A stretch of DNA of 8,876 nucleotides from a virus (IMGVR_UViG_2703718798_000006); one strand, 5' to 3'. Positions 117 through 8,876 are shown, numbered from the stretch's first letter. Numbers and translations are program-made. Notes: generated by a model not told the origin, from the sequence alone.

Positions 117-1109
117 CTAGTCAATGGACAGTTTATGGACACTATCAGCCAGCGGATTAAAGCTAATCGCATCCTGTAAAAAGTCCGGTGAAAAATGCGC
201 ATACGTCATCGTTTGTTGAATCGTGGCGTGCCCAAGGATTCGCTGTAACGTAACGATATTTCCGCCGTTCATCATGAAATGCGTGGCGAACGTGTGACGC
301 ATAACGTGAGTCGCCTGACCTTTGGGTAAATCCGGTTTCACCTCCTGAAGGATATCCCGAAAACGGATGTAATCAGCCTGGTACAATAGCCCGGTTTTTC
401 GGGTTTTTATCAACGAAAGCACCGTATCAGAAACAGGAACCGCGCGGGATTTTCCATTCTTTGTGTTAAAGAACATTACGCGGTTACCAACGATATGCTC
501 ACCACGTAAGCCAGCTGCTTCCCCCCACCTTGCGCCAGTGGAAAGACACAGAACAGCAACACGACGCGCATCCCCCTCGAGTCGTTCAAGCAGCCGATCA
601 ATCTCATCATCTGAAAGAAAGGCCATTTCTGTATTCCTGACCTTGAGCTTACGTATTCCACGCACCGGGTTTTCGTTATGGAAAACCTCCGCATCAATCA
701 GCGAGGTAAACATTGCAGACAAGGCGCACAAATCACGATTAACACTGGAGGGCATTAATCCGGCCTGTAATTTGTCTGAACGATACCCGAGCATAAACTT
801 TCGCGTCATCTCACTGGCGCGGGGGTCCCTCATCTCACGGTTTATTTTTTCCAGCCTGACCCTGTAAGTATCCCCGTAAGGCTGATTCCGGCCATCAAGC
901 ACCCACCAGGCATCTATCAGTTCGGATAACCGACGCTGATCAGCTGGCTTGGCCTGCCACGGTTTATCGTGGAAATTCTGCAAAACATACCTTTCAAACT
1001 CCTGTGCCTTTGACTTCAGGGTAAAAATCTTACGGATCCGCTTTCCTTCCGTCCCTTGCGGTCTTACATCAACCTTATAACGCCCGTCTTTGAGTTGCTT
1101 AATCGACAT
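117..1109 (-). CDS. int: Tyrosine site-specific integrase (P2/186 Int family), 330 aa from ATG at 1109
   Basis: ORF 117..1124 opens with TTG; first ATG at 1109 (MSIKQLKDGRY...) is preceded by GGAGGGG. Length ~P2 Int (337 aa). C-terminal catalytic region has H-x-x-R (VMRHTFATH) and GHATIQQTMTYAH with terminal Tyr, typical of tyrosine recombinases. Confidence 0.9.
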   Translation of the reverse strand: MSIKQLKDGRYKVDVRPQGTEGKRIRKIFTLKSKAQEFERYVLQNFHDKPWQAKPADQRRLSELIDAWWVLDGRNQPYGDTYRVRLEKINREMRDPRASEMTRKFMLGYRSDKLQAGLMPSSVNRDLCALSAMFTSLIDAEVFHNENPVRGIRKLKVRNTEMAFLSDDEIDRLLERLEGDARRVAVLCLSTGARWGEAAGLRGEHIVGNRVMFFNTKNGKSRAVPVSDTVLSLIKTRKTGLLYQADYIRFRDILQEVKPDLPKGQATHVMRHTFATHFMMNGGNIVTLQRILGHATIQQTMTYAHFSPDFLQDAISFNPLADSVHKLSID

Positions 1110-1178
1110 GATTAGCCCCTCCAACGGATGAATCAGCCGTACACTCTCTACGGGATGAAACCCGCTCGATGTACAGCG

Positions 1179-1520
1179 TTAGCCAGCATTGCGACGAGAT
1201 CGGGGTGATTTTTGGGTAATGCCGATTGAAACCTGATCGCCCTCCGACTGAATGGAGCCATCAAGAGAGAGAGCCGGGGCAACCTGCCCGGCAGCGGGAA
1301 ATGTTTTGTCGTGAAGTATCCACATAGTGTATTTTTCGAATCGCTCGACTTGGATTACTTTTTCTACAACCTCAATTCGCGCAGGTTTATATCCAGACTC
1401 ATAATTTCCTATAGTTCCTACAGAAACTCCCGTTACTTGCGAAAACTGAGATTGTGTAAGGTTTTCCGCGTTTCTGATTGCCTTTAGTTTTTTGGCGTAA
1501 TCTCTTGACATGTTCACCAT
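1179..1520 (-). CDS. Immunity repressor, P2 C-type (short HTH repressor); start ATG at 1520 (or 1511)
   Basis: ORF 1179..1661; in-frame ATGs at 1520 and 1511, SD GAGGA upstream of 1520. Sequence ...LTQSQFSQVTGVSVGTIGNYESG...FEKYTMWIL...GQVAPAL... follows the pattern I recall for P2 C (YESG, KYT-W, Q-APAL). Sits just upstream of int on the same strand, as in P2. Confidence 0.75.
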   Translation of the reverse strand: MVNMSRDYAKKLKAIRNAENLTQSQFSQVTGVSVGTIGNYESGYKPARIEVVEKVIQVERFEKYTMWILHDKTFPAAGQVAPALSLDGSIQSEGDQVSIGITQKSPRSRRNAG

Positions 1521-1534
1521 ACGATGAGTATCCT
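1505..1534 (+). promoter_or_regulatory. Putative rightward early promoter (Pe-like): -35 TTGACA (1505-1510), 18-bp spacer, -10 TATCCT (1529-1534)
   Basis: Perfect -35 hexamer and a TA...T -10 at acceptable spacing, pointing toward the cox-like gene; overlaps the repressor start, consistent with face-to-face promoter architecture in P2/186 switches. Confidence 0.5.
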
Positions 1535-1542
1535 CTATTCGA

Positions 1543-1562
1543 ACTTCACCACAGGGTGAAGT
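1543..1562. promoter_or_regulatory. Candidate operator: perfect 20-bp palindrome ACTTCACC-ACAG-GGTGAAGT
   Basis: 8-bp perfect inverted arms with 4-bp spacer, at the predicted Pe transcription start between the divergent repressor and cox-like genes. Confidence 0.4.
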
Positions 1563-1623
1563 AAACAAATCAAAACAAACCTTCATGATGCGCGACAAGC
1601 GCACCAACGCAAGAGGATAGCAA

Positions 1624-2148
1624 ATGCGGAAGTCAATTGCCGATAAAGAGTTATCTGACACACAAGCCCTTCAGGAAAACGACAGCATCACCGAATCCGT
1701 TGGCGCGGCAAACGACGATGAACACCAAGAGGAAAAGAAAAAACGCACCTACAAAAAAGGGGCAACCTTGCGACTGGATGGCCCGGTAGCCGGACTTTGC
1801 TCACTTGAAAAAGGGGCAGCCTATATCGGGTTGACAAAAGCTGCATTGCGCGTGGCGCTTCAGCGAAATCAGATGCCTGGACACAAGACCCGTTCAAACC
1901 CTGAAGATGAAAATTCGGATGGCGTGTGGTGGTTTAACGCCAGAGAGTGGGACAAGCTGGCTGACGAACTACCAGAATGCGAGCCGCCAGAATGGCACAA
2001 CTGGAAAAGCTACTGGACATACGACCGACAGAAAAGAAAGTTTTCCCCGGCAAACAAAGAAGACTGCCAGACCATCAATGGAAAGCGGGTTTACACAGGA
2101 AGAAAGTCAAAACTGGAGCAACACCAATACAGTGGAGGCAACCAGTGA
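1624..2148 (+). CDS. Cox/Apl-like excisionase or early regulator (HTH), unusually long at 174 aa
   Basis: ATG 1624 with strong SD AAGAGGA (1609-1615). Central segment LEKGAAYIGLTKAALRVALQRNQMPG...GVWWFNAREWDKL resembles the excisionase/AlpA/Cox HTH plus aromatic wing pattern. First rightward gene opposite the repressor. N-terminal ~60 aa is acidic and low-complexity. Confidence 0.5.
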   Translation: MRKSIADKELSDTQALQENDSITESVGAANDDEHQEEKKKRTYKKGATLRLDGPVAGLCSLEKGAAYIGLTKAALRVALQRNQMPGHKTRSNPEDENSDGVWWFNAREWDKLADELPECEPPEWHNWKSYWTYDRQKRKFSPANKEDCQTINGKRVYTGRKSKLEQHQYSGGNQ

Positions 2149-4858: not shown

Positions 4859-4941
4859 GGTGAAGCATGGTCGCCATCCTGAATGTGTGTTGCTGCCCCC
4901 CCCTGAACGTGGAAAGAAAAGCCCGCGCATCGCTGCGTTTA

Positions 4942-4966
4942 TTCCGCAACGGTGTGCGGAATTTTT
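4942..4966 (+). terminator. Rho-independent terminator: 7-bp stem TTCCGCA/TGCGGAA, 6-nt loop, T5 tail
   Basis: Perfect hairpin immediately followed by TTTTT, in the gap between the exonuclease and dam. Confidence 0.55.
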
Positions 4967-5090
4967 CACGCATAAAGCCCCACAACTACCTGGTGATAAG
5001 AATCGGTTTTCGCTGGCGATTACTCAGCAAGAACAACGGGAAGTCATGGGATTTATTAACGCATGAAACCTATAACAAAGAGGCCGCGTT

Positions 5091-6071
5091 ATGAGCAAAG
5101 AACTGTTATCCGGCACACCGCTGAAATGGGTGGGTGGCAAAAGCCGCATCATGAACACACTGAAGGTGCATCTGCCAGAAGCTGACTGCCTGGTTGAACC
5201 GTTCGTGGGTGGCGCATCGGTATTCATGAACACCAGTTACAAACGCTACATCCTGGGTGATTCCAATGGTGCGCTGATTAATTTCTGGCGGGCAGCACGG
5301 GACAACACAGACAGTCTGATCGACGAGGCGAAAACCCTGTTCCTGAACCACAACAACAGGGGTGACTATCTCATCATTCGCGAAACCTTTAACGCAGAGA
5401 ATCATGCCTTCCTGAGTAGCAGAACGGGAATAAGCGACCGCCGTGAACTGCGACTGGCCGCCATGTTTTTGTACCTCAACCGGCACTGTTTTAATGGCCT
5501 GTACCGGGTGAACGGAAAAGGCGATTTTAACGTGCCTTTCGGCTGCTACCGCAAGCCCTATTTCCCTGAGCATGAAATCCGCGCATTTGCAGACAAGGCA
5601 AACAGCACCCGAACGCTGCTTATCCACGCAGATTTTAAGGATACGCTGAACTCTGCCAGTCACCTGTTCGGCATGGGCAACACGCTTTGCGTGTACTGCG
5701 ATCCCCCTTACCTGCAATTCAGTGGCCGGGACAATTTCACCGCCTACGGAAAACCATTCGATGAACACGAGCACGTTCGCCTGAGGGCAGCACTTGACCG
5801 CCTTTCGCAGGAAACGGGCGGCATGACCAGCATCACCATCTCCAATTCCGACACACCGGAAACCAGACGCATTTATCAGGGTTACCGGATGAACTGCATA
5901 CAGGCACCACGCAGCGTTGGCGCAAGAACCCGCGAACCAGCACCGGAAGTTATCGCCACCCTGAGACAGTGCGACGCCTGCGGTCACTATGGCGGTGGCT
6001 ACTGCCCGGACTGCGGACCGGTAACGGGAGATGCAACTTACTGCGTGATGTTTACCCCTGCCAGTACGTGA
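5091..6071 (+). CDS. dam: Dam-family N6-adenine DNA methyltransferase with C-terminal Cys4 extension, 326 aa
   Basis: SD AGAGG at 7-nt spacing. N-terminal LKWVGGK and AdoMet motif FVGGASVF (res 38-45), catalytic DPPY (res 204-207). C-terminal CDACGHYGGGYCPDCG (CxxC-x7-CxxC, nt 5970..6014) not present in canonical Dam as I recall it. GATC specificity not verifiable here. Confidence 0.9.
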   Translation: MSKELLSGTPLKWVGGKSRIMNTLKVHLPEADCLVEPFVGGASVFMNTSYKRYILGDSNGALINFWRAARDNTDSLIDEAKTLFLNHNNRGDYLIIRETFNAENHAFLSSRTGISDRRELRLAAMFLYLNRHCFNGLYRVNGKGDFNVPFGCYRKPYFPEHEIRAFADKANSTRTLLIHADFKDTLNSASHLFGMGNTLCVYCDPPYLQFSGRDNFTAYGKPFDEHEHVRLRAALDRLSQETGGMTSITISNSDTPETRRIYQGYRMNCIQAPRSVGARTREPAPEVIATLRQCDACGHYGGGYCPDCGPVTGDATYCVMFTPAST

Positions 6072-6558: not shown

Positions 6559-6899
6559 TTTATATCGCCGGTCCCATGACCGGATACAAAGACGACAACA
6601 GACTGGAGTTTTGCCTGGCGGACCTGAAGCTTAGGTACGCCGGAAACATTGTTCTTAATCCTGCCGTACTGCCTGACGGATTAAGCCAGCAGCAGTACAT
6701 GAGCATTTGTATTCCGATGCTCATGTGTGCCGATGCCATTTACTTACTGGATGGATGGGAAGAGTCCGCTGGCGCACGGGCTGAGTACGCAATGGCACTC
6801 AAGCTGAACATGCCGGTGTCATTCCCGGAAAATCGGGCGGCCGGCGAAACTGTCGCACAGCTGCTTGGCAAATCAAAAGCCGCACAGGCGACTGAGTAA
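6549..6899 (+). CDS. Nucleoside 2-deoxyribosyltransferase-like (DUF4406-type) protein, 116 aa
   Basis: SD GGGAGG upstream. N-terminal VIYIAGPMTG and later ...DAIYLLDGWEESAGARAEYAMA... match the motif pattern I associate with the NDT-like/DUF4406 fold. Confidence 0.65.
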   Translation: MAVIYIAGPMTGYKDDNRLEFCLADLKLRYAGNIVLNPAVLPDGLSQQQYMSICIPMLMCADAIYLLDGWEESAGARAEYAMALKLNMPVSFPENRAAGETVAQLLGKSKAAQATE

Positions 6900-7337
6900 C
6901 CGACCGGAGATCGAAACATGATTGCGCGAAGAGCTGCCAACCGCCTCACAGGCTTTATTCCAGGCAAGATTAATCATGCACTCCATGATGGGACTGTCAC
7001 TTTCCTCAACAAAGGAGAGGCGCGCAATCATGCATTCCTTACTAATCACATGGCGCTGACTGATAAGGCGCTGGTAACTGACTGCCTGCCATTCAGCCTT
7101 TTCAGCCCTGCGTTCAAAACTGGCAGCCATGCACTGCCAAAGCAGAAACAGAACCACACTGAAGAGTACCAACACAACAAAATCACACAGGACAAACGCC
7201 GCAACACCAACCAGAAAGGCGCTGATTCGCAGAGCAGCAGAAACGCGTCGGTGAAACACACATGTAATACGTTCAAGCCAGTAGCTGTACCACAGGTCAA
7301 AAAGAATGTCGTAATCAGAAGGGAGCTTATCACTCAT
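6873..7337 (-). CDS. Hypothetical two-TM membrane protein, 154 aa, antisense to the early operon (alternative start ATG 7397)
   Basis: Internal ATG (7337) of minus ORF 6873..7673. Two adjacent hydrophobic helices (ISAFLVGVAAFVLC-D-FVVLVLFSVVLFLLW) flanked by basic residues. The overlapping plus ORF 6918..8030 is low-complexity and runs through two terminators. Weak SD (GGGG 10 nt upstream). Confidence 0.4.
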   Translation of the reverse strand: MSDKLPSDYDILFDLWYSYWLERITCVFHRRVSAALRISAFLVGVAAFVLCDFVVLVLFSVVLFLLWQCMAASFERRAEKAEWQAVSYQRLISQRHVISKECMIARLSFVEESDSPIMECMINLAWNKACEAVGSSSRNHVSISGRLLSRLCGF

Positions 7338-7500
7338 CAGAAACACCCCGCGTATGCAGACAATCACCAGTTGCCAGGTGATATTAATTCGCCACATTCT
7401 AACCACATCAGCACGCAACACAAAAACCGCTTGCCAGCGTTCGCCTGGTCGGGTTACAGTTTTCCCGCACCTCATAAAACGGGTGCCGGGATTGCAACCC

Positions 7501-7542
7501 CCGCTGACTACACAAGCGCACAACCGCGCCAGCGGTTTTTTT
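7501..7542 (+). terminator. Strong Rho-independent terminator T1: stem CCGCTG/CAGCGG with internal GCGC/GCGC sub-stem, then T7
   Basis: 6-bp GC-rich outer stem (7501-7506 / 7530-7535) directly followed by TTTTTTT (7536-7542); 4-bp inner stem 7516-7519 / 7526-7529. Confidence 0.6.
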
Positions 7543-7582
7543 GTGCGTACCGCATCGTCACATCTTTTTCGCGTCAGAATTA

Positions 7583-7660
7583 TGGTGGGGCGTACAGGGC
7601 CGACTTCGGTCGGGCCGGGGTCTTGTGTAGCCGGTGGTTGCAACCCTGTACGTCTCACCA
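7583..7660 (+). ncRNA. Candidate structured RNA (sRNA or cis-acting leader/antiterminator) in the 17-bp stem fold
   Basis: 7583-7599 pairs with 7644-7660 over 17 bp including two G-U wobbles (7590-7653, 7588-7655), which are valid only in plus-strand RNA. Enclosed hairpin 7600-7604/7609-7613 has loop TTCG with C-G closing pair (cUUCGg). ORF-free region. Confidence 0.45.
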
Positions 7661-7692
7661 CCCAGAATTGCAACCTCTGGATGGTGAGTTTT
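7654..7692 (+). terminator. Putative intrinsic terminator T2: 7-bp + 5-bp stem (one mismatch), 9-nt loop, T4 tail; mutually exclusive with the 17-bp stem
   Basis: CTCACCA(7654-7660)/TGGTGAG(7682-7688) and CCAGA(7662-7666)/TCTGG(7676-7680), followed by TTTT (7689-7692). The 5' arm is also the 3' arm of the long stem at 7583-7660. Confidence 0.45.
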
Positions 7693-7720
7693 CAAAACTT
7701 ACTACACAAGAGGCCACACC

Positions 7721-7948
7721 ATGGCAAACCGCAAGCAACAGCGCGCCCGCGCTGAGCGTCTTCACATCCACACCGAAATCAACCGCAGACTCCATCGGGC
7801 TGCATCTGTCTCCTTCATCATGCAGTCAAACGTATTACACCGACTTAACGACGGTATCGCTGCCGGGTATTACGCGGCAGTCTTCAGCTATCTGGCCGAA
7901 GACCTGGCAGAACTGCAGGACCTTATCAACCAGCAACACCACCACTAA
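7721..7948 (+). CDS. Hypothetical small basic/helical protein, 75 aa, ending HHH
   Basis: ATG 7721 preceded by AAGAGG (7708-7713) at 7-nt spacing; first gene after the structured leader. Confidence 0.6.
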   Translation: MANRKQQRARAERLHIHTEINRRLHRAASVSFIMQSNVLHRLNDGIAAGYYAAVFSYLAEDLAELQDLINQQHHH

Positions 7949-8016
7949 ACAACATCCTGAAGCCATCCCGCACCCGTGCGCGGGAGGCTTCCGCACGTCT
8001 GTTACCGGAGGTTCTC

Positions 8017-8427
8017 ATGAAGAGCGTTAAGGGACTTTCAGATATTCAGGATTTTTTTAACTGGATGTGGGCAGTGGATCCCCGGCTGGCTTCCCGCCTG
8101 AACGACTGGCACGACTATTACCGCCGCGCCTGTAAACAGGCCGCCAGACACGTCACCACATACGGGGATTTCTCCTTCACCGTTGACGACCGTTACCGCG
8201 TGGACGTGAAAGGTGATGGTTTTGGTTTATTTCACATCAACGGAACCGACAGCACCGCCATCAGTTGGTCGTCGTCAGAGATGACGCTTGTTCTGGAAAT
8301 GACAACGCACAGCGTGGCCGTGAAAGGCATATACACCGCAGAAGACTTTATCGGTGAATATCAGCGCCTTCTCGTGCTGTACCGCGCGGCGTTTCAGGCG
8401 GCGACTGCCGGGGAGTGCGACGCATGA
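8017..8427 (+). CDS. Hypothetical protein, 136 aa
   Basis: ATG 8017 preceded by GGAGG (8007-8011); stop overlaps the next start (ATGA 8424-8427). Confidence 0.65.
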   Translation: MKSVKGLSDIQDFFNWMWAVDPRLASRLNDWHDYYRRACKQAARHVTTYGDFSFTVDDRYRVDVKGDGFGLFHINGTDSTAISWSSSEMTLVLEMTTHSVAVKGIYTAEDFIGEYQRLLVLYRAAFQAATAGECDA

Positions 8428-8651
8428 GTGACCACAATGCACAGCTGGCGTACCCGTGGAACGCCCCGCTACCGGTTATCGATCCTGAAACGTTCGGCAG
8501 AGCGCAGCCAACCGCATTACGCCAGGCCATTCAGAGCTACATCAACGAGGATATTCGCACTGACGCCAGACTGGATGAAGAAACCGTCGCCTTCCTGACA
8601 ACCACAGACGAAGGGAAGCGAATTAATTCGCATCTTCAAACTGGTATCTGA
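8424..8651 (+). CDS. Hypothetical protein, 75 aa (ORF opens with GTG at 8415)
   Basis: ATG 8424 translationally coupled to the upstream gene; GGGGAG upstream. Confidence 0.5.
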   Translation: MSDHNAQLAYPWNAPLPVIDPETFGRAQPTALRQAIQSYINEDIRTDARLDEETVAFLTTTDEGKRINSHLQTGI

Positions 8652-8655
8652 AGCC

Positions 8656-8876
8656 ATGGCAGAGCTGCGCGCCCTGCCGCCGTTTCTTGCCGGTCCGCTC
8701 ATCCGTGACCTGGCGCGCCTGAGCCGCAAACAGGAGAGCGCACGCCGGGAAGGGCTTAAGAATAACAGCGCATATGCGGCGGATAACTTCGTTCGTCACG
8801 GGCTGCGTGCCCGCCTGAAACGTATCGCCCGTGTGAATGAACGCTTTGCCACCCCGGCCTTTAAGGCCACCGCCGC
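8656..8876 (+). CDS. 5' end of an ORF running off the window (>=73 codons); possibly the replication initiator (gpA-like) by position
   Basis: ATG 8656, 4 nt after the previous stop and in a different frame; open to the window end (MAELRALPPFLAGPLIRDLARLSRKQ...RIARVNERF...). Functional guess rests on P2 gene order and a faint recollection of P2 A; unverified. Confidence 0.4.
   Translation, partial: MAELRALPPFLAGPLIRDLARLSRKQESARREGLKNNSAYAADNFVRHGLRARLKRIARVNERFATPAFKATA

Follow-up and report, generated by a model that had tools for sequence, protein, structure and literature searches.

The window analysed here, a stretch of 8,876 nt of viral DNA, contains between 7338 and 7542 a segment in which the original prediction had placed a short regulatory RNA, made up of a promoter-like TTGCCA-N18-TACAGT, a 5' hairpin and a strong terminator (T1), with the proviso that T1 could equally be just the terminator of the upstream early operon. 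The question raised by this locus is whether the segment is a transcription unit of its own and, if so, which RNA it encodes and on which gene that RNA acts. On sequence grounds, positions 7467-7542 (+) are a new IsrK-family (a1b1) small RNA, a member of a known family with its own pairing specificity. This IsrK is most likely the decoy partner of a downstream C4 RNA, and the pair most likely gates an anti-repressor gene in a P2-like prophage.

The window corresponds to the early region of a P88-like (Xuanwuvirus, P2-family) prophage, with the following genes:

117-1124 (-): integrase
1179-1661 (-): helix-turn-helix repressor (C-type)
1624-2148 (+): Cox-like regulator
up to 6899 (+): early genes, including those for a Dam methylase and a DUF4406 protein
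6873-7337 (-): convergent antisense gene, 154 aa, phrog_6315
7721-7948 (+): derepression (P4 epsilon-like) protein, 75 aa, Pfam PF25738 and phrog_3688, the gene proposed to be regulated
8017-8427 (+): small ORF
8424-8651 (+): small ORF
from 8656 (+): start of the replication nickase gene A

Among complete genomes, the highest identity (94.6%) is to E. coli prophages located beside dmsA, and 6900-7400 was found only in these closest E. coli prophages. A sharp mosaic boundary lies at ~7400-7406, where the similarity to other P88-like phages begins 25-30 bp 5' of the -35 element, indicating that cassette and promoter together make up one mosaic unit. The antisense gene next to this boundary had been taken as a 95-aa ORF at 7046-7333, which has to be replaced by the 154-aa gene listed above; its product has a hydrophobic centre, and the gene shares 27 nt at its 3' end with the DUF4406 gene. 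Further upstream in the early operon, another 75-aa ORF (window 4867-5094), annotated in an E. coli relative as a ParE-family toxin-like protein, lies immediately 5' of, and overlaps, the Dam-type methylase gene (5091-6071).

The 75-aa ORF at 7721-7948 scored 29.2 bits against PF25738 (Derepression), which is marginal at a cutoff of 27, and for comparison P4 epsilon, around which this family was constructed, scored 170 bits and P88 gp14 31.8 bits. With BLASTP it showed 36% identity to P4 epsilon over 50 aa (E = 5e-9), and it matched phrog_3688 with E = 2e-32.

In the Rfam scan of the whole window, exactly two matches were obtained, isrK (RF01394) and C4 (RF01695), each above its Rfam threshold and separated by 36 nt. 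The isrK match was located at 7467-7542 (+) with 59.6 bits (E = 4e-11; gathering score 50 bits) and covered model positions 1-77, its 5' end being the predicted start at 7467 and its 3' end falling in the predicted U7 tail. The RNA of ~75 nt that had been proposed to begin near 7467 is thus aligned by the model from the first position to the last. The predicted signals of this unit are:

7431-7436 (+): -35 element TTGCCA, from the consensus scan, TTG invariant in 79/79 unique upstream sequences
7455-7460 (+): -10 element TACAGT, separated by an 18-bp spacer from the -35 element, aligned columns conserved
7467-7542 (+): IsrK-family small RNA of 76 nt by RF01394 and fold, also the 5' leader of the read-through transcript
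7467-7472 / 7481-7486 (+): hairpin 1, 6 bp, with compensatory changes
7487-7490 / 7500-7503 (+): hairpin 2, its loop presenting site a1, helix 98.8% paired
7522-7542 (+): intrinsic terminator T1, AACCGC-GCCA-GCGGUU followed by a U run, with hairpin and T run family-wide

Both promoter hexamers are present exactly where they had been placed. The 5' hairpin is correctly positioned as well and has 6 bp, one more than had been given. When 7467-7542 was folded alone, the energy was -26.1 kcal/mol (z = -2.82; 1/200 shuffles equally stable), and the minimum-free-energy fold includes the stem 7501-7506 / 7530-7535, an inner GCGC/GCGC helix and then T7 at 7536-7542, that is, the long-stem form of T1 in the original prediction. 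The terminator kept family-wide consists of the inner hairpin 7522-7527 / 7532-7537 and the U run, and in the P88-like group T1 can be extended to the stem 7501-7506 / 7530-7535.

By consensus, promoter-like sites (9 vs 8.5 expected) and terminator-like sites (15 vs 12 expected) occur in the whole window at chance level, and the IsrK signals stand above chance because of the full-length isrK match and because every element is kept in the 79 unique upstream sequences. In the -10 columns of these sequences, the first T was found in 78/79, and A at position 2, A at position 4 and T at position 6 were each found in 79/79; the distance from the -10 element to hairpin 1 was exactly 6 nt in 79/79. 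In RefSeq relatives, no RNA is annotated at the IsrK position. Operator-like words common to 7338-7470 and the Pc/Pe switch (1440-1760) amounted to one 8-mer vs 1.4 expected, a chance-level result that gives no evidence for control of the isrK promoter by the C-type repressor.

The c4-a1b1 model (RF03163; membership score 46.7 bits) gave no match in 7400-7760 even at E <= 10, so that membership by score is not claimed, only functional equivalence. The layout of this motif is nevertheless present in the window: two hairpins precede C4, the loop of the second contains a1, b1 follows just 3', and the two sites are complementary to C4.

The second Rfam match is a full-length C4-type antisense RNA (78 bits, E = 2e-14; gathering score 45), which was absent from the original prediction together with its target sites and the site complementarity, and which lies directly 3' of IsrK. 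Following the P1 nomenclature taken from the P1 record, the RNA and the pairing sites are:

7492-7499 (+): site a1, UUGCAACC, in the loop of hairpin 2, complementary to a' of C4
7508-7516 (+): site b1, CUACACAAG, just 3' of hairpin 2, complementary to the b' loop of C4
7578-7665 (+): C4-type antisense RNA, RF01695, homologue of P1 C4 and P4 CI RNA
7621-7630 (+): b', UCUUGUGUAG, loop of the second inner C4 hairpin
7636-7645 (+): a', GGUUGCAACC, single-stranded joint of C4, a perfect 10-nt palindrome
7668-7675 (+): target site a2, UUGCAACC, complementary to a'
7702-7711 (+): target site b2, CUACACAAGA, overlapping the Shine-Dalgarno of the next gene

In a narrower delimitation a' is GGUUGCAA (7636-7643), and the Shine-Dalgarno AAGAGG occupies 7708-7713, 7 nt ahead of the ATG at 7721. 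Exact complementarity extends over 9 bp for b'/b1, 8 bp for a'/a1, 10 bp for b'/b2 and 8 bp for a'/a2, and no further copies of the pairing-site words were found anywhere in the 8.9-kb window. The features of a C4 system are therefore found here: C4 above threshold, a' and b' complementary to downstream sites, and b2 over the ribosome-binding site. A consensus scan detected no second promoter-like site between T1 and C4.

The local duplex energies were -11.7 kcal/mol for a1·a', -13.2 for b1·b', -12.1 for a2·a' and -14.7 for b2·b', so that the pairing of IsrK is slightly weaker than that of the true target, which it copies. The gain on co-folding was -2.3 kcal/mol for IsrK with C4 and -0.6 kcal/mol for the target with C4; these values are small because the nested prediction keeps the own stem of C4 and cannot model loop-loop contacts, and it even mis-pairs b' with a', so the local duplex energies were used instead.

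Some further features of the C4 region were observed. The palindrome at a' would permit self-pairing of C4 and a weak a1-a2 pairing in this specificity type, and the same a type as in the window was found at another locus (L021) in combination with a different b type. Between a2 and b2, a 10-bp hairpin with the arms GGUGAGUUUU / AAAACUUACU occupies 7682-7704, its 3' arm overlapping the first bases of b2; its entropy is 0.18 among the P88-like modules, and the hairpin may determine how the target is arranged or how accessible it is.

For the comparison across related modules, a 16-nt word from the C4 5' end was used and retrieved 120 viral contigs; from these, the window and the P88, Gifsy-1 and P1 loci, 88 unique IsrK-C4-target modules were parsed, which fall into P1-like, Gifsy-like, lambdoid/Stx and P88-like groups. 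These modules contain 26 b' loops and 17 a' segments in 38 combinations. The mean number of Watson-Crick base pairs within the own module vs with another specificity was 7.1 vs 3.9 for a' with a1, 7.9 vs 4.4 for b' with b1, 7.1 vs 4.0 for a' with a2 and 8.4 vs 4.8 for b' with b2. The sites of the decoy, the antisense RNA and the target covary three ways.

Among the 17 unique P88-like modules, the mean entropy was 0.77 in the six sites and 0.19 elsewhere (Mann-Whitney p = 2e-10), the backbone being almost unchanged, with values of 0.0 for the terminator and 0.04 for hairpin 1. The closest E. coli prophage departs from the window mainly at the pairing sites, in all three sets. In the P88-like module of E. 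coli strain STEC17-183 the sites are UUCGCAG for a (window UUGCAACC) and CUAGCAAAG for b (window CUACACAAG). Among the modules compared, the b type of the window occurs only in the window and in one metagenomic contig (L107), and exact-pattern scans of GTDB species genomes for its IsrK and its C4 gave no match to the specificity type of the window.

In hairpin 1, compensatory changes were present at 6/7 aligned pairs (41 sequences). In hairpins 1 and 2 together, 93% of the cells were paired vs 78% in shuffles (0/500 reached the observed value) and 34-53% in slid controls, helix 1 being paired at 90% and helix 2 at 98.8%. A terminator hairpin followed by T4-7 was found between b1 and C4 in 57/58 unique family RNAs. 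Conservation of the promoter geometry, of the two 5' hairpins and of the terminator extends over the P1, P4, Gifsy-1, lambdoid and P88-like groups; for P4, the terminator was assigned from the isrK model alignment.

Among the closest known relatives is IsrK of Gifsy-1 in Salmonella, the founding member (Padalon-Brauch 2008; Hershko-Shalev 2016), an experimentally detected RNA of 77 nt (PMC2330248). Accumulation at this length, Hfq binding and activation of the anti-repressor in trans are known for the Gifsy-1 member only. It has its own promoter and a leaky terminator; the promoter drives the short RNA and a translationally silent read-through transcript, and its deletion abolished the transcripts (PMC4825925). 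When Gifsy-1 IsrK was supplied in trans, translation of the downstream anti-repressor increased 114-171-fold, and an RNA mutated in a1 failed to do so (PMC4825925). The compensatory mutations reported there, G28A/C162U and G31A/C159U (PMC4825925), were located by the present alignment in the a1 site (G28A/G31A) and the a' site (C162U/C159U). A processed RNA, STnc1160, covers the C4 position, and a1-a' pairing in cis keeps the long transcript folded in an inactive form (PMC4825925). In the Gifsy-1 record, isrK (79 bits) and C4 (69 bits) lie side by side, and c4-a1b1 (RF03163, 48.1 bits) overlaps isrK.

The window element resembles that of Gifsy-1 in hairpin 1, hairpin 2 with a site in its loop, the linker with the second site and the terminator, in its length (76 nt vs 77 nt), in the common promoter geometry (-35, N18, -10, N6) and in the position of IsrK directly 5' of a C4-type RNA (STnc1160 / 'orf45') and of a gene counteracting the phage repressor. 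The two differ in that the window element is P2-like whereas Gifsy-1 is lambdoid, the regulated product is a 75-aa P4-epsilon-like protein instead of the Rha/Ant-type AnrP, and neither AntQ nor isrJ is nearby in the window. The a site is UUGCAACC in the window vs UUGGCGU in Gifsy-1, the b site is CUACACAAG vs UCACCG, and the sequence of hairpin 1 differs. The orf45-like frame of the window is 57 codons long and runs into the beginning of the next gene.

In P4, the immunity leader scored as isrK with 60.8 bits (P4 record L125, match at 8615-8692 (-), epsilon at 7888-8175 (-)), the CI RNA as C4 with 74.9 bits, and RF03163 gave 44.1 bits. The seqA of P4 is reportedly, in the account ascribed to Sabbattini et al. 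(1995), the target via which CI RNA enforces termination. The order of the cassette is the same in the window and P4, namely leader (seqA), C4 (CI RNA, seqB in P4), target (seqC), epsilon and a replication gene (alpha in P4). The differences are that the epsilon-like gene comes first among the ORFs that follow the target sites in the window but lies further downstream in P4, that the replication gene is a P2 A-type nickase in the window and the alpha primase in P4, that the two intervening window ORFs (8017-8427 and 8424-8651) are without similarity to P4 orf151 and orf106, and that the window element is a phage of the helper type and has a C/Cox switch of its own.

In the immI region of P1, c4-a1b1 (51.0 bits) and C4 were matched, and isrK reached 35 bits, which is sub-threshold. 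In P1/P7 and P4, C4 is matured by RNase P from the read-through transcript, represses translation and exerts polarity on distal genes. The window and P1/P7 immI (P51b, a1 b1, c4, a2 b2, icd, ant) have in common the order of the sites, with b2 over the ribosome-binding site. The P1 equivalent of the predicted promoter is the annotated sigma-70 promoter P1c4 (P51b), with the -10 element at the same position and divergent genes upstream, and the distance from the -35/-10 elements proposed here to hairpin 1 equals that of P1c4 (P51b) and of the Gifsy-1 promoter. P1 differs in having a long-loop terminator and icd and ant as the regulated genes, and RF03163 matches P1, not the window. The supplement of Weinberg 2010 describes two covarying hairpins enclosing a1, with b1 just 3', and repeats the P1 proposal that a1b1 competes with a2b2 for C4. 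Judging by the side-by-side matches in Gifsy-1, P1 and P4, a single type of element goes under the names IsrK, a1b1 motif and P4 seqA leader, and in every case a C4-type RNA directly follows it.

Other explanations of the segment have to be weighed against these results. T1 might be a plain terminator of the upstream early operon, with TTGCCA and TACAGT matching a promoter by chance and no independent start of transcription. The chance-level rate of promoter-like and terminator-like sites in the consensus scan fits this explanation, and so does the scan between the end of the DUF4406 gene (6899) and T1, in which no plus-strand terminator was detected, so that read-through from upstream would also stop at T1. 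However, the hexamers and the 6-nt gap to hairpin 1 are kept in 79/79 sequences from at least four phage groups, the P1 counterpart is an annotated promoter that follows divergent genes, the Gifsy-1 transcripts depend on their promoter as described above, and promoter and RNA move as one unit from the mosaic boundary. A mere operon terminator also offers no explanation for T1 travelling with a1/b1 in every phage group, and this origin of T1 is considered highly improbable. Still closer to negligible is the possibility that the region is protein-coding, as 7354-7755 (+), as 6918-8030 (+) or as a long antisense form. Mechanical ORFs (6918-8030 (+), 7354-7755 (+) and 6873-7673 (-)) do cross the IsrK region, which had been described as ORF-free; that description holds in the sense that none of them is supported as coding there. 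ORF 7354-7755 matches PHROG 'transcriptional regulator' families (best E = 7e-14), and RefSeq relatives annotate a 215-aa antisense protein whose 5' end covers 7467-7520. The PHROG matches are nevertheless explained by a lambdoid AUG inside C4 that is in frame with the Rha/Ant gene, from which annotators extended the protein over the RNAs. The orf45-like frame stops after 8-16 codons in many relatives, the coding candidates across the IsrK region gave no Pfam or NCBIfam matches, the phrog_6315 profile covers only the 154-aa antisense form starting at 7337, and the variation tracks RNA pairing, not codons.

With regard to this frame, the AUG at 7582 in the conserved C4 5' end (AAUUAUGG) opens 57 codons (7582-7755, +) ending 35 nt into the derepression gene, in a position corresponding to 'orf45' of Gifsy-1. 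An orf45-like ORF from the AUG inside C4 was considered as a family feature and rejected, the relatives in which it closes early including two P88-like ones; the frame 7582-7755 is probably not a conserved coding feature. Phage annotations (hits H21 and H25-H32) and PHROG 'transcriptional regulator' families hold Rha/Ant N-terminal extensions translated from the IsrK-C4 RNA, apparently an artefact of annotation that was carried over into the profile library.

The reading preferred here, which we regard as likely, is that IsrK serves as a1b1 element in the C4-type immunity cassette of a P88-like prophage, competing for C4 and thereby relieving its block. Transcription would start ~6 nt past TACAGT, and most transcripts would end at T1, giving an RNA of ~76 nt with a1 in the loop of hairpin 2 and b1 just 3'. 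Read-through of T1 would produce an RNA containing C4, a2, b2 and the epsilon-like mRNA, followed by the two small ORFs and the nickase gene A. C4 would pair through b' and a' with b2 and a2, cover the Shine-Dalgarno and silence the derepression gene, and by analogy with P1 icd-ant and P4 it would probably also silence the distal genes up to A by polarity. The short IsrK, carrying the same two sites, would titrate C4 and favour expression of the derepression protein, as Gifsy-1 IsrK does in trans, and the derepression protein would then inactivate the prophage repressor. The sequences show the family membership, the anatomy, the complementarity, the three-way covariation and the conservation of promoter and terminator, and from these we infer the accumulation of IsrK in the phage of the window, its action in trans and the direction of its effect. 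The Gifsy-1 mechanism invokes translation of the upstream ORF orf45, and the lack of family-wide conservation of that frame counts against the preferred reading, as do the negative RF03163 scan, the small co-folding gain of IsrK with C4, the RefSeq records with no RNA at this position, and the P4 seqA account, in which the sign of the effect is the opposite. As regards the original prediction, the small RNA proved correct to the nucleotide, and its expression in the phage of the window stands as a prediction.

The competing account closest to this reading is that the element acts in cis only, as a leader or attenuator of the P4 kind, in which a1/b1 on the nascent RNA would let C4 enforce termination or an inactive fold and the short RNA would be a by-product of autoregulation with no role in trans. 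Such an account is favoured by the P4 leader, which scores as isrK in the same place relative to CI RNA, and by the work on Gifsy-1, whose authors raise the analogy with P4 SeqA/CI and show that cis pairing of a1 with a' keeps the long transcript inactive (PMC4825925); furthermore, IsrK and C4 come from a single promoter, so that their ratio would be set by termination at T1. The activation of the downstream gene by Gifsy-1 IsrK in trans, and the failure of the a1 mutant RNA, speak against it, and a stable RNA flanked by hairpins and ending in a U tail would titrate C4 regardless of whether selection had favoured it for this role. A role in cis only is thus judged rather unlikely. The sign of the effect cannot be set from sequence alone, and the decoy role and a P4-like cis role would not be mutually exclusive.

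The family, the partner RNA and the principle of their action were already known, and the link between IsrK and C4 is only implicit in the literature: the Gifsy-1 authors mention the analogy with P4 SeqA/CI, the families in Rfam overlap, and a 2025 review gives IsrK and c4 as unrelated items. Both Rfam and this review keep IsrK, c4-a1b1 and the P4 seqA leader apart. In the present comparison IsrK, c4-a1b1 and the P4 seqA leader behave as one element. Two things are new: a P2-like phage harbours a family member of distinct specificity, 5' of a P4-epsilon-like gene and a replication gene, and there is dense evidence for diversification of the pairing sites as a matched set of three; the literature search found no paper linking C4 or IsrK to P2-like phages. 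An unannotated intergenic stretch under doubtful protein calls of RefSeq and phage records is thereby replaced by two defined regulatory RNAs and a defined target.

These results suggest a second, RNA-based layer of lysogeny control in the P2-like lineage, with an origin in common with the immunity of satellite P4. The concentrated three-way variation of the sites also provides ready natural specificity swaps for the study of decoy/antisense competition. A bolder proposal, put forward tentatively as possible rather than probable, is that P88-like phages carry a complete P4-type RNA immunity cassette gating an epsilon-like anti-repressor and the nickase A, in which the six hypervariable sites, recombining as two independent modules, form an RNA 'immunity code' with IsrK as its specificity-matched inducer. 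If this is true, an element of matching type could be switched on or off by the IsrK or C4 of another resident element, whether prophage, P4-like satellite or incoming phage, and the epsilon/CI cassette of satellite P4 would be of common ancestry with a cassette native to the helper lineage.
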